DNA of 15,321 nt from the IMG/VR virus record IMGVR_UViG_2698536443_000012. One strand, given 5' to 3'. Positions 1,546 to 15,321 of this stretch are shown here, in pieces. The notes under the pieces were generated by a model. The model saw only the letters and a list, made by a program, of their open reading frames with translations, searched no databases and was not told where the DNA came from. The DNA comes from a virus. Taxonomy: Duplodnaviria; Heunggongvirae; Uroviricota; Caudoviricetes. The first letter of the stretch is position 1, and each line of letters starts with the position of its first letter. Position numbers and translations under genes: made by a program.

Positions 1546-1878
1546 ATTGATAACAGAGGGCGTTGCAGCGGGGTTGTCACTTAAGCGTATGGTCAACCTG
1601 ACAACCCGGTGTCCTCAACGGGGAAGGAATAACCCCTCCATACTTACCGCCGCGCCATTTCGCGGATTGCCACAACCGGAAGCGCACGGTCGACGAAAAT
1701 TTAACGACAGGCTATCTATGAACCAGCTACCTCGCCGTGCGCTTTCGCGTTATGGTCTGACTTTTCAGAGAAATATCCTTTCAGTAAACTGTCAGTGCCG
1801 GATGTTCACCCGTGTCCGGCGCACGCACTCCACTTCACCCGTGGAGAACTCCTTAATTACCAACCCTCAGGAGGGTGA

Positions 1879-2112
1879 ATGTTAAAATCAACTCTTATTG
1901 CTAAATGCCTTTATCAAAATCGCATGGTAAGCAGCATTTCAATAGGCGAGTCTGCAGTTAAAAGTATTTTCGAAGAGTACTTTCCCGGGCATGATTTTAA
2001 TAAATGGAATACCAAATTACCGCCAGCAGTTTCAACGCGTATTCTGAAAGCAACCGAAAGAGCAAGTACAATTCGCGTTAACTATTTCATTAAAGATTTG
2101 TGGGATCTTTGA
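1879..2112 (+). CDS. Hypothetical protein (77 aa), AT-rich cargo gene
   Basis: ATG preceded by AGGAGG with 5-nt spacing (CTCAGGAGGGTGAATG). Protein-like composition. Markedly AT-rich relative to flanks. 3' end overlaps the convergent 135-aa ORF. Confidence 0.5.
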   Translation: MLKSTLIAKCLYQNRMVSSISIGESAVKSIFEEYFPGHDFNKWNTKLPPAVSTRILKATERASTIRVNYFIKDLWDL

Positions 2113-2497
2113 TATCCACAGAGCCTAAAGTATGTGCATATGGATGTGCTATTATGCGCCCTCGCAGATTTGCATCATTTTCTAAATTCACTGAACGAAA
2201 CAGGGCATCAACAAGGCTCTGTACAATGCAAAGGCAATCGAAGACTGTCGCCGTTTCTGTTTTGATTGATGAAAGAACATGGCCATTCACGCAAACAGAA
2301 ATTACCCGTTTATTAACATCGCTTTCCTGCTTTTGATTATCAGAACCATATAGCCCAGAAAAAGCATTGCGCACATTACGAACCATATTATCGATGGTTT
2401 CTTTTTCTGCGGTACTAAGGTCAAGAGTAGCCAGTTGTGAACGAACTATATTCGATGCCATTTCCTGTAATGGCGTTGGTAAATCTTTAAATTCCAT
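2090..2497 (-). CDS. Hypothetical protein (135 aa), AT-rich cargo gene
   Basis: ATG at 2497 with GAGG RBS about 7 nt upstream. No family recognised by eye. Downstream of the ydfC-like gene on the same strand. Confidence 0.55.
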   Translation of the reverse strand: MEFKDLPTPLQEMASNIVRSQLATLDLSTAEKETIDNMVRNVRNAFSGLYGSDNQKQESDVNKRVISVCVNGHVLSSIKTETATVFDCLCIVQSLVDALFRSVNLENDANLRGRIIAHPYAHTLGSVDIKDPTNL

Positions 2498-2519
2498 TAT
2501 TAGCCTCGTTGGTTAGCTA

Positions 2520-2738
2520 TTAACGTGGGTATGTAATCATTCTGGCAATGCTTAATGCCGCTGCTTTTTCCAGATTGGTGATATCCTGCTCCAGAGCGGA
2601 CAGATTTTCAGCCTGCTTAGCCCTGGCTTCATTGGCCCATTTCAGGTCCTGCACCGCCTTAATTTTCTGGTGCATCCACTCATAAAGTTCATCATCGGTA
2701 TAGTCTGGCGCGATGATGACGGGGTCTCGTTTCTGCAT
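2520..2738 (-). CDS. Small hypothetical protein (72 aa), YdfC-like by size and position
   Basis: ATG at 2738 with AAGGAG RBS about 6 nt upstream. Lies in the DicA-repressed leftward operon. The YdfC assignment rests on length and synteny only. Confidence 0.5.
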   Translation of the reverse strand: MQKRDPVIIAPDYTDDELYEWMHQKIKAVQDLKWANEARAKQAENLSALEQDITNLEKAAALSIARMITYPR

Positions 2739-2810
2739 GTCGGCTCCTTGTGGTTAGCGTTGCCTGCTTTTTAACCACGTCAGGCGAGGTGGTATCCTCT
2801 GAGGGGTCTG

Positions 2811-3167
2811 TTACTCGAGAGGAAATTGGTTATGAATACAATCAAGTTTTCTTGCCCAGAATGTGGTGGCTAAGTCTTTGACACATCCTTTAAGCCGCAG
2901 GGCTCTGACAGTTTCGCGGGAGCCATCTGCAAAAATTGTGGTCACCTTGTAACTGAAGATGAGTCCTCGCAGTTCGATGACGAAATCGTTGACAATATCT
3001 TCGGTGCACTCACCAGAGACTTTCTGAAGTAAAGGCGCATACCGCTTAGTTACCGCTCTGATAACTCTTACCTGTCCGGCAATGGCGCTGATATCAATAT
3101 AAAGCGCCATCGCTGTTTCTTTGCTGATCCCTGGACGCCTTCCATTCTGATGTTTGACTTCGCCCAC
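2811..3167 (-). CDS. Hypothetical protein (118 aa), first ORF of the leftward DicA-controlled operon
   Basis: GTG start at 3167 with GAGGA RBS about 7 nt upstream. About 75 nt downstream of a minus-strand promoter-like TTGACC-17-CTAAAT. No recognisable domain; could instead be two smaller genes (ydfA/ydfB-like). Confidence 0.4.
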   Translation of the reverse strand: MGEVKHQNGRRPGISKETAMALYIDISAIAGQVRVIRAVTKRYAPLLQKVSGECTEDIVNDFVIELRGLIFSYKVTTIFADGSRETVRALRLKGCVKDLATTFWARKLDCIHNQFPLE

Positions 3168-3239
3168 TGAGAAATCCTCTGCTTCCCCTTAACGCCGGGT
3201 AGCGGAACTGTTTGCTGAGAACACCGTGCGGTGTCTTGA

Positions 3240-3300
3240 TGAGTAGAATTTAGAATAGCCTAAGAGTTATGGTCAAGCTTTTTGTGTAGAAAAACCTAAG
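3240..3300 (-). promoter_or_regulatory. Candidate DicA-repressed leftward promoter (dicBp-like) with operator half-sites
   Basis: On the minus strand, -35 TTGACC (plus 3271-3276) and -10 CTAAAT (plus 3248-3253) with 17-bp spacer. Minus-strand CTTAGGTTTTTCTACA (plus 3285-3300) nearly repeats CTTAGGTTTCTCTACG in the dicA-dicC intergenic region. TTAG-N6-CTAA at 3250-3263. Confidence 0.4.
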
Positions 3301-3374
3301 CTTCTTGATGTAAAAAACACAAGTATTTGAAAGTTTGTGCTTTTTATTACAGAGAGTTGCGAAAAAAAGGGGGG

Positions 3375-3782
3375 TTATTTATTTGCGCTTCTTTTGCGAG
3401 CTTTGAGTAGTTCTTCAAAAAGTTTGTTGAAATTCTCAACTCGAGCACGCATCTCTGACAACAGAGCCTTTTGCTCTGACTCAGGCAGTGCGTCGAACAG
3501 TTGAAGCAACTCTTTTTGATCTTCTGTCAGATTGACTGGCTGATTATCTGGGATCGGTTCGCCTGGTTGCTTATCTTCATCTCCAAAAAGAAGCCAAGTC
3601 GGCGAGCACTGAAGCGCCTGGCTCAGTGCGAATAATCTCTTCCCCGCTGGCTGTGTTTCATCTCTTTCCCATTGAGAAATTGTTACGTGAGCCACTTTGA
3701 CCAGCTTACCTAATGCGGCCTGAGACAGTTTTAATTTTTTTCGCCTGTATAAGAGGCGAGCACCGAAGGTTTCGTTTTTCAT
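3375..3782 (-). CDS. dicA: Prophage repressor DicA (XRE-family HTH, cI-like)
   Basis: 135-aa ORF with HTH motif LSQAALGKLVKVAHVTISQWERDETQP and C-terminal ...ALPESEQ...EMRARVENFNKLFEELLKAR closely resembling E. coli DicA as I recall it. Divergent from dicC. Confidence 0.85.
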   Translation of the reverse strand: MKNETFGARLLYRRKKLKLSQAALGKLVKVAHVTISQWERDETQPAGKRLFALSQALQCSPTWLLFGDEDKQPGEPIPDNQPVNLTEDQKELLQLFDALPESEQKALLSEMRARVENFNKLFEELLKARKRSANK

Positions 3783-7714: not shown

Positions 7715-8473
7715 ATGAGGAACATAATGGCAGGTTTTTTAATATTCCTGTCTTCTGCTGCTTATGCTGATATCAATCTGTATGGTCCTGGTGGCCCGCA
7801 TACAGCCTTGCTTGATGCAGCCAAACTTTATGCCGAAAAAACAGGTATTATAGTGAACGTTCATTACGGCCCACAGAACAAATGGAATGAAGATGCCAAA
7901 AAAAATGCAGATATCTTGTTTGGCGCATCAGAACAATCTGCTCTGGCTATCATTCGGGACCATAAAGACAGCTTCAGTGAAAAAGATATTCAGCCTCTTT
8001 ATCTGCGAAAAAGTATTTTACTGGTAAAGAAAGGTAATCCTAAAAATATCCGGAGTATTGACGACCTGACCAGACCTGGGATTGGCGTAATTGTTAATGA
8101 TGGTGGTGGTACCAGTAATACATCAGGCACTGGCGTCTGGGAAGATATTGCCGGACGTAAAGGGAATATAGAAACTGTCGCCGCAATCCGAAAAAATATT
8201 ATTTTATATGCGCCCAATAGCGGAACTGCACGTAAGGCTCTTGAGAATCAGCCTGGAGCAGATGTCTGGATAACCTGGGCTGACTGGGCAGCCAGTAATC
8301 CAGAAATTGGTGATGTCGTGGAAATAGCGCCAGACTACGTGATATGGCGTGATATGAACATTACAGTACGTCAGGATGCAAATGATGAAACCCGTCGATT
8401 TGCAGAATGGCTACAAACCGATGAAGCGGCGCCTGCATTCAAAAAATATGGCTGGACCAGGAAAGGCACTTGA
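7715..8473 (+). CDS. Secreted/periplasmic solute-binding protein, ModA-like (type 2 periplasmic binding fold), orphan
   Basis: AAGGAG RBS 6 nt upstream. N-terminal signal peptide MRNIMAGFLIFLSSAAYA then DINLY. C-terminal ...RRFAEWLQTDEAAPAFKKYGWT resembles the ModA C-terminus (...FYDYLKGPQAAEIFKRYGFT, from memory). AT-rich gene with no adjacent permease or ATPase genes. Confidence 0.7.
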   Translation: MRNIMAGFLIFLSSAAYADINLYGPGGPHTALLDAAKLYAEKTGIIVNVHYGPQNKWNEDAKKNADILFGASEQSALAIIRDHKDSFSEKDIQPLYLRKSILLVKKGNPKNIRSIDDLTRPGIGVIVNDGGGTSNTSGTGVWEDIAGRKGNIETVAAIRKNIILYAPNSGTARKALENQPGADVWITWADWAASNPEIGDVVEIAPDYVIWRDMNITVRQDANDETRRFAEWLQTDEAAPAFKKYGWTRKGT

Positions 8474-8505: not shown

Positions 8506-8808
8506 CCGGATGCCGCGCCAGCGGCATGTAGGGGCAGCTCACAAAACGGAAAAAATTGTACGCTAAGCCTCGCCAGGTGAACTGAATTCATTCCGATATG
8601 GGAATTCCCATATCGGGCGAAAACGGTTTGCTGTAACGGCAGAGTTAAGTAGGATTGCTGCGGGTGCTTGAGGCTATCTGCCTCGGGCATGAACACCAAC
8701 GGCAGATAGATAAAAGCCCCACCCGACTATAAATCGAAGTGAGGCCCCTATATGCTCGTCACATATAGATTGCCTCTTACGGACCGAAAGGTCAAGGAGA
8801 AGCAGGCT

Positions 8809-8964
8809 ATGAAGCAGCAAAAGGCGATGTTAATCGCCCTGATCGTCATCTGTTTAACCGTCATAGTGACGGCACTGGTAACGAGGAAAGACCTCTGCGA
8901 GGTACGAATCCGAACCGGCCAGACGGAGGTCGCTGTCTTCACAGCTTACGAACCTGAGGAGTAA
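8809..8964 (+). CDS. hokD: Hok-family membrane toxin (HokD/RelF-like), with in-frame upstream mok extension from 8752
   Basis: 51-aa ORF MKQQKAMLIALIVICLTVIVTALVTRKDLCEVRIRTGQTEVAVFTAYEPEE, the Hok family signature. The in-frame extension MLVTYRLPLTDRKVKEKQA with GAGG RBS fits a mok reading frame. Confidence 0.85.
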   Translation: MKQQKAMLIALIVICLTVIVTALVTRKDLCEVRIRTGQTEVAVFTAYEPEE

Positions 8965-10847: not shown

Positions 10848-11213
10848 ATGACTGAACGGATAGAATTTGTTTTGCCTTACCCGCCGACGGTGAATACCTA
10901 CTGGCGACGTCATGGCAATACGTATTTCATCTCGGAAGCCGGAAAGCGTTATCGCCGTGATGTGGCGCTAATTGTTCGCCAGCAGCGGCTGAAATTAAAC
11001 CTGTCCGGAAGGCTGGTGATAAAGATTATTGCAGAGCCACCGGATAAGCGCCGTCGTGACCTGGACAATATCCTGAAAGCACCACTGGATGTGCTGACGC
11101 ATGCCGGACTTCTCATAGACGACGAGCAGTTTGATGAAATCAATATTGTGCGCGGTCAGCTCGTTCCTGGTGGGCGGCTGGGGATAAAAATCACAGAACG
11201 GGAGTGCGCATGA
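10848..11213 (+). CDS. rusA: Holliday junction resolvase RusA
   Basis: 121-aa ORF with YPPTVNTYWRRHG...RRRDLDNILKAPLDVLTHAGLLIDDEQ, matching conserved RusA motifs (compare E. coli RusA ...[22 protein letters not shown]). Start abuts the stop of the upstream gene. Confidence 0.85.
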   Translation: MTERIEFVLPYPPTVNTYWRRHGNTYFISEAGKRYRRDVALIVRQQRLKLNLSGRLVIKIIAEPPDKRRRDLDNILKAPLDVLTHAGLLIDDEQFDEINIVRGQLVPGGRLGIKITERECA

Positions 11214-11899
11214 ATAACCACTATTTACAGTTTGTGCGTGAGCAGCTCATTATCGCCACCGCTGATTTGAGTGGGGCAACAAAAGGTCAGCTTGAAGCCT
11301 GGCAGGAGAATGCCATGTTCGATACAGGGCGTTACAGGCGAAAAAAAATCCGGTACCGCGATGAAGTGACTGGAAAAATGATAACGCGGGATAATCCACC
11401 AATCCCGGGAAAGCAATCGCTGGCGAAGGTGACGTCAATTCCTCTGGTCAGTCCGGTTGAGTTTTCGACATCATCGTGGCGGCGGGCTGTTCTGTCTCTT
11501 GAAGAACATCATAAAGCCTGGTTGTTGTGGTGTTACAGCGGGAGTATTTGTTGGGAATATCAGATCGCGATAACACAGTGGGCGTGGAATGAATTTAATA
11601 CTCAATCCGGTACCAGAAAAATTGCTGGGAAAACGCAGGAACGCCTGAAAAAATTAATCTGGCTGGCGGCGCAGGCAGTAAAAGCAGAACTTTTTGGTGG
11701 GGAAGGTTATGAATATCAGGAGCTGGCATTACTGGCGGGAGTGACAACTAAAAACTGGTCCAAAACATTTACTCGTCACTGGGTTGCAATGAAACACATT
11801 TTTCACCGACTGGATAGTGAGGCTTTATTATTTGTAATGAGAACACGTTCAAAACAAAAGGCGGCATTTTCAAAGCAAAGTGTTGCAAAAGTAGATTGA
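11210..11899 (+). CDS. Late-gene antiterminator, Q-like
   Basis: ATG at 11210 overlaps the rusA stop (ATGA); the track's 11204 start is GTG. About 230 aa, located between rusA and the late promoter/tRNA region, the canonical Q position. Family assignment is from context plus general resemblance. Confidence 0.65.
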   Translation: MNNHYLQFVREQLIIATADLSGATKGQLEAWQENAMFDTGRYRRKKIRYRDEVTGKMITRDNPPIPGKQSLAKVTSIPLVSPVEFSTSSWRRAVLSLEEHHKAWLLWCYSGSICWEYQIAITQWAWNEFNTQSGTRKIAGKTQERLKKLIWLAAQAVKAELFGGEGYEYQELALLAGVTTKNWSKTFTRHWVAMKHIFHRLDSEALLFVMRTRSKQKAAFSKQSVAKVD

Positions 11900-11910
11900 A
11901 AGGCATATAT
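11882..11910 (+). promoter_or_regulatory. Candidate late promoter (pR'-like) overlapping the Q 3' end
   Basis: -35 TTGCAA (11882-11887), 17-bp spacer, -10 TATATT (11905-11910). A terminator lies about 55-80 nt downstream, as expected for a short Q-modifiable transcript. Confidence 0.3.
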
Positions 11911-11962
11911 TTCATGCAAATCTGATATTTTGCCGATTTTGTACGTGATGGCAAAAGCAAAC

Positions 11963-11990
11963 AAAACCCGCCCACAAGCGGGTTTTGTTG
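11963..11990 (+). terminator. Rho-independent terminator (tR'-like)
   Basis: AAAACCCGC-CCACAA-GCGGGTTTT stem-loop followed by a T-rich run. Confidence 0.55.
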
Positions 11991-12056
11991 TGCCACTTAT
12001 CTCGGATAGACATGGTGAATGCGCTGGTGGAGGAGATAAGGGTGATTTTTGTATGC

Positions 12057-12094: not shown

Positions 12095-12170
12095 GGCCCT
12101 TTAGCTCAGTGGTGAGAGCGAGCGACTCATAATCGCCAGGTCGCTGGTTCAAATCCAGCAAGGGCCACCA
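12095..12170 (+). tRNA. ileZ: tRNA-Ile2 (anticodon CAU, lysidine type), ileZ-like
   Basis: Hand-folded cloverleaf: acceptor GGCCCTT/AAGGGCC, D-arm GCTC...GAGC, anticodon loop CTCATAA, T-loop TTCAAAT, encoded CCA. Close to E. coli ileX as I recall it. Confidence 0.85.
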
Positions 12171-12171
12171 A

Positions 12172-12247
12172 CCGCCACTAGCCATCAGGAAAGAGCGTCA
12201 ACCCTTTAAGTTGAGTGTGCGAGGTTCGAGTCCCCGGTGGTGGTCCA
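12172..12247 (+). tRNA. tRNA-like gene, atypical (possible argN-like); identity unresolved
   Basis: Acceptor CCGCCAC/GTGGTGG with one GU pair, T-arm CGAGG-TTCGAGT-CCCCG, anticodon stem TCAAC/GTTGA with loop CCTTTAA (C at position 33, anticodon UUU by position), degenerate D-stem, encoded CCA. Confidence 0.45.
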
Positions 12248-12260
12248 TTATCGGTATTCT

Positions 12261-12334
12261 GCGTTGTTAGCTCAGCAGGACAGAGCAATTGCCTTCTAAG
12301 CAATCGGTCACTGGTTCGACTCCAGTACAACGCG
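12261..12334 (+). tRNA. tRNA-Arg (anticodon UCU), argO-like
   Basis: Acceptor GCGTTGT/ACAACGC, D-arm GCTC...GAGC, anticodon stem ATTGC/GCAAT with loop CTTCTAA, T-arm ACTGG-TTCGACT-CCAGT. No encoded CCA (CTA follows). Confidence 0.8.
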
Positions 12335-12340
12335 CTACAC

Positions 12341-12415
12341 TTATTTTCCCGGCTCGCTTTTGCGGGCCTTTTTTGTATCTGCGCCACGCCCGGCGCATAC
12401 CAACCACAGAGCCTT
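12341..12415 (+). repeat. Copy 1 of a ~75-bp post-tRNA segment (terminator hairpin plus second hairpin), about 90% identical to 14106-14179
   Basis: Contains terminator GGCTCGC-TTTT-GCGGGCC plus T6 (12351-12374) and hairpin TGCGCC-ACGCCC-GGCGCA, then CAACCACAGAGCCTT. Aligned by eye to the second copy. Confidence 0.7.
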
Positions 12416-12481: not shown

Positions 12482-12784
12482 ATGAGCAGAAAAACCCAAC
12501 GTTACTCTAAAGAGTTCAAAGCCGAAGCTGTCAGAACGGTTCTTGAAAATCAACTTTCGATCAGTGAAGGCGCTTCCCGATTATCTCTTCCTGAAGGCAC
12601 TTTAGGACAATGGGTTACCGCCGCCAGAAAAGGGCTCGGTACTCCTGGTTCCCGCACGGTGGCTGAACTGGAATCTGAAATTCTGCAACTGCGTAAGGCG
12701 TTAAATGAAGCTCGCCTTGAGCGAGATATATTAAAAAAAGCAACTGCGTATTTTGCCCAGGAGTCGCTGAAAAATACGCGTTAA
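12482..12784 (+). CDS. IS600 transposase OrfA (HTH)
   Basis: MSRKTQRYSKEFKAEAVRTV...LRKALNEARLERDILKKATAYFAQESL, recognised as IS3-family OrfA (IS600). Confidence 0.85.
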   Translation: MSRKTQRYSKEFKAEAVRTVLENQLSISEGASRLSLPEGTLGQWVTAARKGLGTPGSRTVAELESEILQLRKALNEARLERDILKKATAYFAQESLKNTR

Positions 12785-12819
12785 TCGAACAATGGCGACA
12801 ACAATTCCCCATTGAAGCG

Positions 12820-13638
12820 ATGTGTCAGGTATTTGGTGTATCCAGGAGCGGTTATTACAACTGGGTACAGCATGAACACTCAGACAGAAAACAAAGTGAT
12901 GAGCGGCTAAAACTGGAGATTAAGGTGGCACATATCCGCACTCGCGAAACATATGGAACCCGGCGGCTCCAGACGGAGCTGGCAGAGAATGGCATCATCG
13001 TTGGTCGTGACCGACTGGCACGTCTTCGTAAGGAGCTAAGGCTACGCTGTAAGCAGAAACGCAAGTTCAGAGCGACTACGAACTCGAACCACAATCTGCC
13101 AGTTGCGCCAAATCTGCTGAACCAGACGTTCGCTCCTACAGCACCAAATCAGGTCTGGGTGGCGGACCTGACGTATGTTGCCACACAGGAGGGATGGTTG
13201 TACCTCGCTGGCATCAAAGATGTTTATACGTGCGAAATTGTCGGCTACGCCATGGGAGAGCGCATGACAAAAGAGCTGACAGGTAAAGCCCTGTTTATGG
13301 CGCTCAGGAGCCAGCGCCCACCTGCCGGGCTAATCCACCACTCCGATCGAGGTTCACAGTACTGCGCATACGATTACCGGGTCATACAGGAGCAGTTTGG
13401 TCTGAAAACATCAATGTCGCGTAAAGGTAACTGTTACGACAACGCTCCGATGGAAAGCTTCTGGGGAACGCTGAAAAATGAGAGCCTGAGCCACTATCGT
13501 TTTAAGAGCCGGGATGAGGCCATCTCAGTAATACGGGAATACATTGAGATTTTCTACAATCGTCAGCGTCGTCACTCTCGTCTGGGGAATATCTCCCCGG
13601 CAGCCTTCAGGGAAAAATATCATCAGATAGCTGCTTAA
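12820..13638 (+). CDS. IS600 transposase OrfB (DDE integrase core); expressed as OrfAB by -1 frameshift
   Basis: DDE motifs in VWVADLTYV, HHSDRGSQY and MESFWGTLKNE. The frame overlaps the orfA 3' end after the AAAAAAG slippery site. Confidence 0.85.
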   Translation: MCQVFGVSRSGYYNWVQHEHSDRKQSDERLKLEIKVAHIRTRETYGTRRLQTELAENGIIVGRDRLARLRKELRLRCKQKRKFRATTNSNHNLPVAPNLLNQTFAPTAPNQVWVADLTYVATQEGWLYLAGIKDVYTCEIVGYAMGERMTKELTGKALFMALRSQRPPAGLIHHSDRGSQYCAYDYRVIQEQFGLKTSMSRKGNCYDNAPMESFWGTLKNESLSHYRFKSRDEAISVIREYIEIFYNRQRRHSRLGNISPAAFREKYHQIAA

Positions 13639-13681
13639 AAAAAGAACAAATGGTAGTGTCCGCTATTGTCAGTACACCTCA

Positions 13682-13814
13682 GGATGCTAAGTACGGGAAA
13701 TGGAGAGCAAGAATTAATGCGTCTGGAAAGTGTATTAACCTTGGATACCATGACACTGCCGAACTTGCCGCTGCGGCTTTTGAGGCAGCCAGAATGAAAT
13801 ATCATACCGTTTAA
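13682..13814 (+). pseudogene. 3' remnant of an HNH homing endonuclease (AP2-like C-terminal domain), truncated by IS600
   Basis: Frame ending at 13814 encodes ...DAKYGKWRARINASGKCINLGYHDTAELAAAAFEAARMKYHTV, typical of the AP2-type C-terminus of phage HNH endonucleases. The 5' part is missing and the frame runs into the IS600 right end. Confidence 0.45.
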
Positions 13815-13868: not shown

Positions 13869-13943
13869 GGGTCAGTCGTATAAAGGTCATTACGGAAGGC
13901 TGTTAACCTTCTTATCGTGGTTCGAGTCCACGCTGTCCCGCCA
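13869..13943 (+). tRNA. tRNA-Asn-like (anticodon GUU)
   Basis: Acceptor GGGTCAG/CTGTCCC (one T-T mismatch), anticodon stem GAAGG/CCTTC with loop CTGTTAA, T-arm CGTGG-TTCGAGT-CCACG, encoded CCA. D-arm is weak (3 bp). Confidence 0.55.
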
Positions 13944-13948
13944 AACAT

Positions 13949-14024
13949 GCTGGTTTAGCTCCAATGGTAGAGCAACTGACTTGTAATCATCAGGTCGCCA
14001 GTTCGATTCCGGTAGCCGGCACCA
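13949..14024 (+). tRNA. tRNA-Thr-like (anticodon UGU), thrU-like with weakened anticodon stem
   Basis: Near-identical to E. coli thrU as I recall it, except the 3' anticodon-stem strand (TCATC instead of TCAGT) leaves only 3 canonical base pairs. Anticodon loop CTTGTAA, T-loop TTCGATT, encoded CCA. Confidence 0.55.
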
Positions 14025-14027
14025 TAT

Positions 14028-14102
14028 GCGGGTACCGTATAATGGCTATTACCTCAGCCTTCCAGGCTGATGATGCGGGTTCGATTCCCGCTACCCGCTC
14101 CA
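14028..14102 (+). tRNA. tRNA-Gly (anticodon UCC), glyT-like
   Basis: Sequence GCGGGTACCGTATAATGGCTATTACCTCAGCCTTCCAGGCTGATGATGCGGGTTCGATTCCCGCTACCCGCTCCA differs from E. coli glyT (from memory) at only a few positions. Perfect acceptor stem, encoded CCA. Confidence 0.8.
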
Positions 14103-14105
14103 GAT

Positions 14106-14179
14106 TTATTATCAGGCTCGCTTCGGCGGGCTTTTTTTGTATCTGCGCCACGCCCGGCGCATATCAACCACAGAGCCTT
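14106..14179 (+). repeat. Copy 2 of the ~75-bp post-tRNA segment, including a terminator
   Basis: Terminator GCTCGC-TTCG-GCGGGC plus T7 (14115-14138), hairpin TGCGCC-ACGCCC-GGCGCA, then CAACCACAGAGCCTT; about 90% identical to 12341-12415. Confidence 0.7.
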
Positions 14180-14270
14180 TCGGGGGTGAGCTTACGGAGT
14201 GGTCAGTGTGACTTTCTCTGTGGGCAGATCGCTCCCGGGCGTTGGCTCACCCACCCAAAGGAACGTCACG

Positions 14271-14702
14271 ATGTTTGGTATTTTTGGTAAAAAAGCCCGC
14301 AGAGCAGCAACTGAAATTAAAAAGTTTGAGAAACGCGATCTGGCACAGGCGGTTATTAATGCTGCCTACCTGGTGGCCTATGCAGATGGTGAATGTGAGA
14401 CTTCAGAGAAAGCGAAGATCGAACAGGTATTACGTAACCAGCCAGCATTGTCCGCATTTACGTCAGAAATTAATGCCATCAGTGCCACGATCACAGGTCA
14501 GCTTGACACCAATTTTAAAATTGGTCGTCGTGCAGCGTTGCGTGAAATTGAAGATGTGAAACACGATACGCGTGAAGCGGAAGATGTGCTGGATGTGGCG
14601 GTGGCCATTGCTGAAGCAGATGGTGAAATTGAGCCGGAAGAGCGTAAGGTTCTGGAAGAGATTGCTGGTGTTCTTGGCCTGCGACTGGAGAACCACCTGT
14701 GA
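14271..14702 (+). CDS. TerB-like (tellurite-resistance TerB domain) protein
   Basis: 143-aa ORF from ATG 14271 (AGGAA upstream); the track's longer version starts at 14199. Two A-x-ADG-E-x-E repeats (AYLVAYADGECETSEKAKIEQVL and VAIAEADGEIEPEERKVLEEIAGVLG) typical of TerB-family proteins. Confidence 0.65.
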   Translation: MFGIFGKKARRAATEIKKFEKRDLAQAVINAAYLVAYADGECETSEKAKIEQVLRNQPALSAFTSEINAISATITGQLDTNFKIGRRAALREIEDVKHDTREAEDVLDVAVAIAEADGEIEPEERKVLEEIAGVLGLRLENHL

Positions 14703-14866
14703 CGGTAAAACTGCGTCTGGCCGCTGTGGCACTCCTGCTGTTTCTGGTGGTGATGGTGGATTTCACCAGCAGGATCATGTCGGTGCTGGCGGATGGAGTG
14801 CTGGTCTGCGGCATTGTGGTATTGCTGTGGCCGGTGATAAAAAGAAACAGCCTGCATAATGCTTGA
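14699..14866 (+). CDS. Small hydrophobic protein (55 aa), probably translationally coupled to the TerB-like gene
   Basis: GTG at 14699 overlaps the upstream stop (GTGA), with GGAG 8 nt upstream. Predicted sequence VTVKLRLAAVALLLFLVVMVDFTSRIMSVLADGVLVCGIVVLLWPVIKRNSLHNA has two hydrophobic segments. Below the track's length cutoff. Confidence 0.4.
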   Translation: MTVKLRLAAVALLLFLVVMVDFTSRIMSVLADGVLVCGIVVLLWPVIKRNSLHNA

Positions 14867-15180
14867 TTTTTTTGTTTGCTGTTTATTAAAAACACTTCTG
14901 CATGGTGAATCCCCCTGTGCGGAGGGGCGATCAGCAACCAGGTATATGGGATAATCGCGGATTCAGGTGCTGATACTGAATTCACCGGGAGGCACCCGGC
15001 ACCATGCTTTGCCACAAAAGTGTTGTTTCTGTTTTTCTCAAACTATCATCATTATCCCTTTATTTCCGGCTGCGCATGGCGTGGCCTTTTTTTTACGACC
15101 AGCCACTGGCAGATGGCCATCCTGTAATTTGATTCCGGTTCCGGCTTTTTAACTCTGTTCCTGTACACGGGAGAAATTCG

Positions 15181-15321
15181 ATGTCGATTAAACATTATGA
15201 TGTTGTCAGGGCGGCGTCGCCGTCAGACCTTGCGGAAAAGCTGACACATAAACTGAAAGAGGGCTGGCAGCCGTTTGGTAGTCCGGTGGCCATAACCCCT
15301 TATACCCTGATGCAGGCGATT
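15181..15321 (+). CDS. Small late-region phage protein (N-terminal 47 codons; continues beyond the window)
   Basis: ATG with GGGAGAA RBS 7 nt upstream. MSIKHYDVVRAASPSDLAEKLTHKLKEGWQPFGSPVAITPYTLMQAI resembles a short conserved family I associate with the Q-to-lysis interval of lambdoid prophages (possibly DUF1737); uncertain. Confidence 0.5.
   Translation, partial: MSIKHYDVVRAASPSDLAEKLTHKLKEGWQPFGSPVAITPYTLMQAI

Follow-up and report, generated by a model that had tools for sequence, protein, structure and literature searches.

The tciAB pair of a lambdoid prophage: a TerB-fold protein and a coupled small membrane protein in the cargo slot between Q and the lysis genes

Since the 1990s the TerB domain has been tied to resistance against tellurite, colicins and phages, and the ter operon (terZABCDE) to tellurite resistance, phage inhibition and colicin resistance; to our knowledge, no mechanism is known for the domain. 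Here, a stand-alone TerB gene, tciA, was analysed together with tciB, the gene of a small membrane protein coupled to it, in a stretch of 15,321 nucleotides (nt) from a tailed phage (IMG/VR record IMGVR_UViG_2698536443_000012; "the window" below means this whole stretch), which covers the early-right and late-left regions of a lambdoid prophage. The pair itself is already known and named: it is tciA/tciB of phage P1, with the Pfam families TerB and DUF3927 and PHROG 632 and 1470 as its two components. The new comparative result is a survey of the partners of TciA, in which phage TciA was almost always followed by a coupled small membrane protein, belonging to either of two families that are unrelated to each other. 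The locus is otherwise an ordinary one, the pair and the small RNA (sRNA) gene behind it both being catalogued and abundant in prophages of pathogenic Escherichia coli.

In a CRISPR interference (CRISPRi) screen of P1, tciA, tciB and tciC were scored as non-essential, with no fitness effect on knock-down, while RNA-seq of P1vir quantified transcripts of tciA and tciB/C at both sampled lytic time points. The tci operon is often missing from P1-like phage-plasmids, and the tciABC region is variable among them; the authors who studied P1-like and D6-like elements state that the resistances predicted there are untested, and in the D6-like study the ter operon is called incomplete. A membrane or exclusion-type role at the time of infection has been suggested by Iyer and colleagues for Ter components in jumbo phages. 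Related domains are found at membranes elsewhere: the host protein DjlA consists of a transmembrane helix joined to a TerB-like domain, TerB has been reported to be membrane-associated, and the domain is part of two validated defence systems, Shango and Bunzi, for which their authors proposed membrane surveillance. Phage JLK-2012 has the order Q, tRNA Asn-Thr-Gly, tciA, tciB, yjhS, S-R-Rz, with tciA and tciB annotated as such; PGAP labels the same genes in E. coli genomes as "tellurite resistance TerB family protein" and "DUF3927 family protein".

In the window both genes lie on the plus strand, tciA (143 amino acids; Pfam, PHROG and PDB profile matches) at 14271–14702 and tciB (55 amino acids; Pfam and PHROG matches) at 14699–14866. 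An earlier note, made from the letters alone, had described two open reading frames (ORFs) at 14199–14702 and 14699–14866, and both are present; the GTG at 14199 that it took as the start of the TerB gene was rejected, as homologs and PGAP use the 143-residue form and longer database calls carry unrelated N-terminal extensions. The most likely start, judged from the sequence, is the ATG at 14271, because it is preceded by AAGGA, because 143 residues is the length of the GenBank and PGAP homologs, and because the N-terminus MFG-KK is conserved in all lineages. The overlap of the TerB stop with a GTG start, which had also been pointed out, holds exactly: the TGA of tciA (14700–14702) overlaps the GTG of tciB (14699–14701) in a 4-nt GTGA, and the GTG start of tciB is conserved.

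TciA is a soluble, all-helical TerB-fold protein, and the TerB domain proposed from the letters is confirmed. It matches Pfam TerB (PF05099) over residues 26–138 with E 2.1e-16 and 60.7 bits (gathering cut-off 24.4), it matches PHROG 632, labelled tellurite resistance, with E 4e-69, and a profile built from nine TciA homologs matches the solved Klebsiella pneumoniae TerB (PDB 2jxu) over residues 13–137 with E 1.9e-16. The AlphaFold2 model (pLDDT 86.7) is all-helical, and a Foldseek search with it against the PDB gave weak matches, none below 1e-3, with 2h5n at E 0.016 and TM 0.55–0.64 and 2ou3 at rank 11; since these structural matches are weak only, the fold assignment rests on the sequence profiles. 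The entry 2h5n, a protein of unknown function, is TerB-like in SCOP. TciA carries two acidic ADGE...E motifs, at residues 38–41 and 116–119, a duplication that is visible in the DNA as a direct repeat (14382–14408 and 14616–14642), and E46, D117 and E124 are invariant across the nine diverse homologs.

TciB belongs to DUF3927 (PF13064; E 1.7e-16, 60.3 bits, cut-off 25) and to PHROG 1470, which is labelled TciB-like (E 2.7e-29). The two hydrophobic segments ascribed to it by the earlier note are present, at about residues 7–20 and 33–47, around a polar segment in which a stripe of residues with helical spacing, D21-S24-S28-D32, is conserved between the hydrophobic stretches. The family is small: among 1.84 billion proteins it makes up 113 clusters at 50% identity. 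It is essentially always stand-alone; no holin or antiholin family in Pfam matched TciB. Among E. coli prophage alleles TciA has a ratio of nonsynonymous to synonymous polymorphism (pN/pS) of 0.049 and TciB one of 0.325, while the other frames at the locus lie at 1.2–2.8, so that both frames are under purifying selection.

The kinship with P1 extends over both proteins. P1 TciA and the window protein are homologous from end to end (tblastn E 1e-38 to a P1 record, 40% identity in the alignment), and the two TciB proteins are homologous members of DUF3927; in P1, tciB also lies directly behind tciA, although there the start of tciB shares a single base with the tciA stop where the window has an overlap of 4 nt. 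Asn and then Thr tRNAs precede the cassette in both, and in both the function is assigned by homology only. The surroundings differ in other respects. In P1, tciB is followed by tciC, which encodes a peptide of 35 residues with a single transmembrane segment and is missing from the window: tblastn with P1 TciC against the window gave no significant match, and the ORF that overlaps the tciB stop there (14859–14954) is not hydrophobic. Behind the cassette stand tRNA-Ile and ban in P1 and the sRNA gene STnc100 in the window, and whereas the window cassette would belong to a Q-dependent late operon, that of P1 stands behind the C1-controlled Pban promoters and ahead of ban, all in the same orientation.

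TerB of the ter operon (2jxu) is of the same Pfam family as TciA and of similar length (153 versus 143 residues), with acidic repeat motifs present, but TciA is stand-alone and phage-encoded, and its partner, a DUF3927 mini-protein, has no counterpart in the ter operon. The neighbours of TciA are tRNAs, DUF3927, STnc100 and the esterase; neither the window nor any of the related loci examined has terZ, terA, terC, terD or terE. DjlA and YebE (DUF533) are host inner-membrane proteins with a TerB-like domain, and TciA shows matches below threshold to both, to DUF533 in Pfam (E 2.3e-5, 24.5 bits, cut-off 29.6) and to DjlA in NCBIfam (E 7.3e-7, 29 bits, cut-off 162); because both scores are below their cut-offs, TciA is by sequence a member of neither family. 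In DjlA the membrane segment and the TerB domain are joined, whereas in TciAB they are on separate polypeptides and there is no J domain. Shango and Bunzi likewise use a TerB domain (with transmembrane helices in Bunzi), but they do so with helicase, ATPase or other partners and in host defence islands, and no partner genes of this type were seen beside tciAB in the window or in the related annotated loci. In PADLOC-DB 2.0 the best match of TciA was PDC-S48 (E 0.003, 14.7 bits, 35 residues), and TciB matched nothing.

The survey was made on 183 loci with TciA relatives, which came from annotated phages, from viral contigs of IMG/VR and from the genomes of bacteria and form 27 clusters at ~90% identity; a narrower alignment of TciA against genome contigs gave eight loci. 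An ORF for a small membrane protein was found at −17 to +4 nt from the TciA stop in 177 of the 183. The partner was a DUF3927-like ORF at 166 loci and an ORF of PHROG 27356 at 11, in five clusters made up of the Pseudomonas phages AF and Zuri and metagenomic contigs (L006 1932–2153; L009 1943–2146; L120, L153 and L154 at about 2441–2644 or 2429–2632). This second partner, absent from the window, has 67–73 residues and begins with a transmembrane helix, which is followed by a conserved domain with the motif CxWYGYQTER...GCMV...W.PR.E.R; no Pfam family covers it, and the PHROG is annotated as of unknown function. The edge of the contig was reached at three loci, and three more had no such ORF: a frameshifted copy, Vibrio phage K480, and a locus with only a hydrophobic peptide of 26 residues. 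Among close relatives of the window pair, tciB was directly behind tciA in 80 of 80. The co-occurrence that the earlier note wished to see examined is thus the rule; the 55-residue ORF is conserved, and the TerB gene has no known function of an unrelated kind.

The cassette is carried by virulent N4-like phages (Pollock, FSL SP-058, FSL SP-076 and Zuri, the last an N4-like phage of Pseudomonas), by Erwinia jumbo phages, by P1-like phage-plasmids and by lambdoid prophages. The database clusters of TciA and of TciB hold hundreds of member sequences each, and the 596-nt cassette was found in 1145 of 5426 complete E. coli genomes. Those that have it carry it at a median of 4 places, and at 10 at most. 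The cassette lies in or beside a tRNA cluster in P1 (L002 1131–2791), in Erwinia jumbo phages (ChrisDB, L005 886–3277) and in E. coli lambdoid prophages (window 13869–14866). A functional link between tciAB and tRNAs was considered and set aside; the adjacency is probably that of a shared cargo region, because tRNA genes occur within 1.5 kb in only 6 of the 27 clusters.

The position of the pair in the window is between Q, the candidate late promoter and the tRNAs on one side and the block of STnc100, nanS-p and the lysis genes on the other. The late antiterminator Q, of the Q82-type family, is encoded at 11204–11899 on the plus strand (Pfam Phage_antiter_Q, PF06323, E 1e-90). A consensus scan placed a candidate promoter (TTGCAA-17-TATATT) at 11883–11911 (+), and a G+C-rich hairpin with a T-rich tail can be read at about 11961–11990 (+); by analogy, these look like pR' and tR'. 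Upstream of the pair, terminator-like hairpins are found, and a consensus scan showed no sigma-70-like promoter between the terminator behind tRNA-Gly and tciA. Because there is no promoter-like site before tciA, transcription of tciAB should depend on Q-modified polymerase coming from pR', that is, on lytic growth, and the expression from the late promoter that the earlier note had envisaged is plausible.

That note had also recognised the interval after Q and the tRNAs as the slot which carries the toxin genes in phages converting their hosts to Shiga toxin production, and this was borne out by the Stx1 phage 75/02, where the order is Q, stx1A, stx1B, an STnc100-like element, the esterase and a holin. 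The slot of stxAB, after Q and tRNAs and before an STnc100-like element and nanS-p, is identical to that of tciAB, while the cargo is unrelated and tciAB is not a toxin; on sequence comparison, tciAB takes the place of stxAB upstream of the same STnc100-like element. Of the 148 phage records that match the region, only four carry tciAB, and the Stx phages match the downstream element only. In one E. coli prophage (14EC047, L187) Q is followed by a DNA methyltransferase and a RelE/helix-turn-helix toxin-antitoxin pair (1827–3694), and these by tciAB, STnc100, AgvB and the esterase. Prophages of Pantoea and Franconibacter have tciAB between Q, of two different families, and holin/endolysin genes, and in Klebsiella, Pantoea and Franconibacter prophages it is directly upstream of holin or endolysin genes. 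The interval from Q to the lysis genes thus acts as a multi-cargo hotspot.

Behind tciB, the earlier note had seen about 300 bp of structured non-coding DNA. The spacer to the esterase (315 nt) is indeed structured, but it is not anonymous: it holds an sRNA gene of the STnc100/PasD family, separate from the protein pair, and a terminator-like hairpin. STnc100 (Rfam RF02076) lies at 14871–15043 (+), beginning 5 nt past the tciB stop, and reaches 104.7 bits (gathering score 47) over the full model span 1–206, the window copy being a shortened variant of 173 nt for the 206 model positions. The terminator scan placed the hairpin (15068–15086) and its T8 run at 15068–15094 (+). A published primer for quantitative PCR of STnc_100, CATGGTGAATCCCCCTGTGC, matches 14901–14920 exactly, and in Stx2 phages STnc_100 has been reported 75 nt downstream of the stx2 operon. 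According to a 2026 preprint STnc100 is related to the PasD sRNAs, and TerB, RusA and DUF1627 are typical neighbours of the PasA and PasC sRNAs; genes for all three are present in the window. When 20 related loci were scanned, STnc100 was always behind tciB or stx1B in the positive ones (L001, L008, L015, L019, L026, L029, L037, L038, L044, L058, L071, L078, L090 and L187): behind tciB in 12 phages or prophages of E. coli type and in Klebsiella phage 1 LV-2017, and behind stx1B in the Stx1 phage 75/02. The same scan gave no match in the 434-type, Pantoea, Pseudescherichia and Franconibacter loci. AgvB (anti-GcvB) was seen on the opposite strand just beyond STnc100 at four of the loci (L038, L058, L090 and L187), and there was no AgvB call in the window. 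A 19-nt stretch just past the tR'-like hairpin, CATGGTGAATGCGCTGGTG at 12011–12029, is 79% identical to the conserved STnc100 core at 14901–14919; it may be a chance likeness or what is left of a related sRNA beside Q.

The reading that we favour, and to which we give about an even chance, is that tciAB is a non-essential, membrane-level module of the lytic cycle, placed in the cargo slot of the lambdoid late operon in the order Q, pR'/tR', tRNAs, tciAB, STnc100 sRNA, nanS-p and lysis genes. The pair would be transcribed only once Q lets the polymerase read from pR' through the terminators behind the tRNAs. TciB, or its PHROG 27356 alternative, would then hold TciA, or act as its partner, on the cytoplasmic side of the inner membrane, so that TciA and its small membrane partner would amount to a two-piece version of the layout of DjlA, a transmembrane helix plus a TerB-like domain. 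In the infected cell the pair would serve as a guard of the membrane, most likely keeping it or the proton-motive force intact, or excluding competitors such as a superinfecting phage or pore-forming colicins, until lysis; it would confer neither tellurite resistance nor abortive infection on the lysogen. A lytic-cycle role is favoured because the cassette is found in virulent phages, the same cassette in Pollock, the Erwinia jumbo phages and Zuri being counted for it, and because no promoter of its own was seen in the window. In P1, too, tciAB is downstream of the C1-repressed Pban and should therefore be silent in the lysogen. The lytic transcripts of P1vir, the terminator-like hairpin ahead of tciA in the window and the order Q, tciAB, lysis genes, kept with two different Q families in Pantoea and Franconibacter, also speak for such a role. 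A link to the membrane is suggested by the sub-threshold matches to DjlA and DUF533 and by the membrane association reported for TerB, and a non-essential role by the P1 CRISPRi screen and the frequent absence of the operon from P1-like elements; the reading agrees with the suggestion of Iyer and colleagues for jumbo phages. The roles open to the pair are narrowed by its coupling to a tiny membrane protein, by its retention in virulent phages and by its place in the late-operon slot of Shiga toxin.

A more specific proposal, which we regard as possible although rather unlikely, is that TciA with its DUF3927 or PHROG 27356 partner forms a minimal, self-contained TerB module, used during infection by temperate and virulent phages alike, that would neutralise a membrane-directed attack, whether by abortive-infection effectors of the host, pore-forming colicins or a superinfecting phage, or that would hijack envelope signalling by TerB-domain proteins of the host, such as DjlA/Rcs. 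If it were true, it would give the TerB fold its first defined molecular function, with a core for binding an ion or ligand made up of the acidic motifs on the TciA side and the conserved D-S-S-D stripe on that of TciB; at 143 and 55 residues the pair is a very small, directly testable system for the long-standing TerB question.

Other roles are conceivable for such a pair, and the two that the earlier note had in mind, abortive infection and the timing of lysis, are both disfavoured. Abortive infection or defence by the prophage, with TciA sensing the infection and TciB depolarising the membrane as in RexA/RexB of lambda, would agree with the layout of a soluble and a small membrane protein, with the TerB domains of Shango and Bunzi, with the DNA methyltransferase and RelE toxin-antitoxin genes that the slot can also hold, and with the variability of the tciABC region in P1-like elements, such as is often seen for defence cargo. 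It is nevertheless improbable in our estimation, for the product of a promoterless gene pair in a late operon would be absent when a superinfecting phage reaches the lysogen, the PADLOC match is negligible, the cassette is present in virulent phages, and purifying selection is strong, with near-identical alleles in up to 10 copies per genome. The name tci itself suggests a moron for lysogenic conversion, expressed in the lysogen and giving its host resistance to tellurite, oxidative stress or colicins, and the homology to TerB of the ter operon, the database labels of tellurite resistance, the great frequency of the pair in prophage-rich pathogenic E. coli and the use of the slot by stx and other conversion genes all point that way. 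Against this stand the lack of terZ, A, C, D and E at all loci examined, which leaves TciA a stand-alone TerB; the terminator-like hairpin found upstream where a promoter-like site was lacking; the homologs in strictly virulent phages, for which lysogenic conversion has no meaning; and the silence expected of the P1 cassette in a lysogen. We hold conversion to be improbable as well, and the label "tellurite resistance" on these prophage genes should not be taken as a resistance phenotype.

An accessory role in lysis timing, in which TciB would modulate the holin or act as an antiholin and TciA would be its cytoplasmic regulator, is suggested by the prophages of Klebsiella, Pantoea and Franconibacter that have tciAB directly 5' of holin/endolysin genes, by the holin-like size and hydrophobicity of TciB and by the presumed co-transcription with the lysis genes in lambdoid phages. 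It is very unlikely, however, given that TciB matches no holin or antiholin family, that the P1 cassette sits between Pban and ban and that of the N4-like phage Pollock among genes for a dUTPase, replication initiation and an N4 gp24-like protein, both away from the lysis genes, that in the window STnc100, the terminator and a 1.9-kb esterase gene stand between tciAB and the lysis cassette, and that the CRISPRi knock-down in P1 had no fitness effect. The last alternative is a mimic that serves counter-defence or host signalling: a free TerB domain at the membrane would compete with sensors of the Shango/Bunzi type, with DjlA or with YebE and so blunt immunity or envelope-stress signalling. Retention of the cassette by virulent and temperate phages alike would suit such a mimic, as would the tRNA clusters that adjoin it in lambdoid, P1-like and Erwinia jumbo phages and the resemblance of TciA to the TerB-like region of DjlA (NCBIfam, E 7e-7, below cut-off); but the argument is one of guilt by association, the tRNA linkage is confined to 6 of 27 clusters, no target is known, and between TciA and the TerB proteins of known defence systems the kinship is distant, with no significant PADLOC match, so that the chances of this alternative appear slight. 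What the earlier note observed is confirmed with corrected coordinates, while its interpretation is partly supported.

Several points weigh against the lytic-cycle membrane module that we favour. A literature search found no functional experiment on any tciAB, and the absence of a promoter before tciA relies on a crude consensus scan. The timing of expression differs between phage groups, which fits a general role at the time of infection without proving one. Contact between TciA and TciB is something that we infer, and the AlphaFold2 model of TciB alone, a single helix of 53 residues, is uninformative on topology. Apparent TerB-DUF3927 fusions (P0127, P0186, P0250 and others), which might have served as Rosetta-stone evidence for contact, have junctions that look frameshifted or chimeric and were left unused. 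The TciA of Vibrio phage K480 has no small membrane ORF behind it at all, and conversely prophages of the 434 type carry TciB without TciA, behind an unrelated polytopic membrane protein of 247 residues. The latter (PHROG 1521, no Pfam family) is encoded 85 nt upstream of TciB, likewise in the slot from Q to the esterase (L003 2112–3099, phage 434; L186 2163–3150); that it could be a hidden TerB was ruled out by an hhalign probability of 0.1%. Because TciB occurs without TciA in these prophages, it is not just an anchor for TciA.

The remainder of the window is that of a lambdoid prophage with some unusual cargo. Upstream of the block of tRNAs and tci genes it has replication protein P, DUF1627, a hok/sok module, DUF968, RusA and Q. 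The tRNA region is split in two. The first cluster (12095–12335, +) was called by ARAGORN as a tRNA with the anticodon CAT, a doubtful middle tRNA and tRNA-Arg(TCT), of which Rfam backs the first and the third only. The CAT tRNA at 12095–12170, which ARAGORN named tRNA-Met(CAT), is from its sequence probably a tRNA-Ile2, its mean column identity to P1 trnI being 89% over an alignment of 87 columns that includes short flanks; the middle call, tRNA-Lys(TTT) at 12172–12247, may be a degenerate tRNA. The second cluster (13869–14102, +; ARAGORN and Rfam) consists of Asn(GTT) at 13869–13943, Thr(TGT) at 13949–14021 and Gly(TCC) at 14028–14102, the Thr gene having been found by Rfam and missed by ARAGORN. 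One copy of a 65-nt direct repeat stands behind each cluster: the repeat search found the first at 12351–12415 (+), with a terminator-like hairpin at 12351–12368, and the repeat and terminator scans found the second at 14114–14179 (+), just 3' of tRNA-Gly, with a terminator-like hairpin and a T run; 12351–12415 and 14115–14179 are 94% identical. Between the clusters, almost directly behind the first repeat copy, is an insertion sequence of the IS3 family (12482–13638, +; orfA 12482–12784, orfB 12820–13638; Pfam HTH_Tnp_1 and rve), which is probably IS600-like and which appears to join two alternative tRNA modules. It is followed by an ORF of 54 residues (13650–13814, +) with a sub-threshold match to an AP2 domain (E 4.2e-5, 24.2 bits, cut-off 33.3), which may be the remnant of an AP2-domain gene, for example that of a homing endonuclease.

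At its other end the window is cut within a nanS-p-type esterase gene, of which the 5' end with the N-terminal DUF1737 domain is seen at 15181–15321 (+; Pfam, E 2e-16); in homologous loci this gene is annotated as a SASA family carbohydrate esterase. Two more RNAs were called in the early region, the antisense RNA DicF at 1493–1544 on the minus strand (76.7 bits) and the antitoxin RNA sok at 8662–8964 (+; 103.9 bits), the latter overlapping an ORF of the Hok/Gef family at 8752–8964. An ORF of 252 residues at 7715–8473 (+) encodes a bacterial periplasmic solute-binding domain (SBP_bac_11, E 5.5e-34), an unusual cargo for the early region of a prophage.

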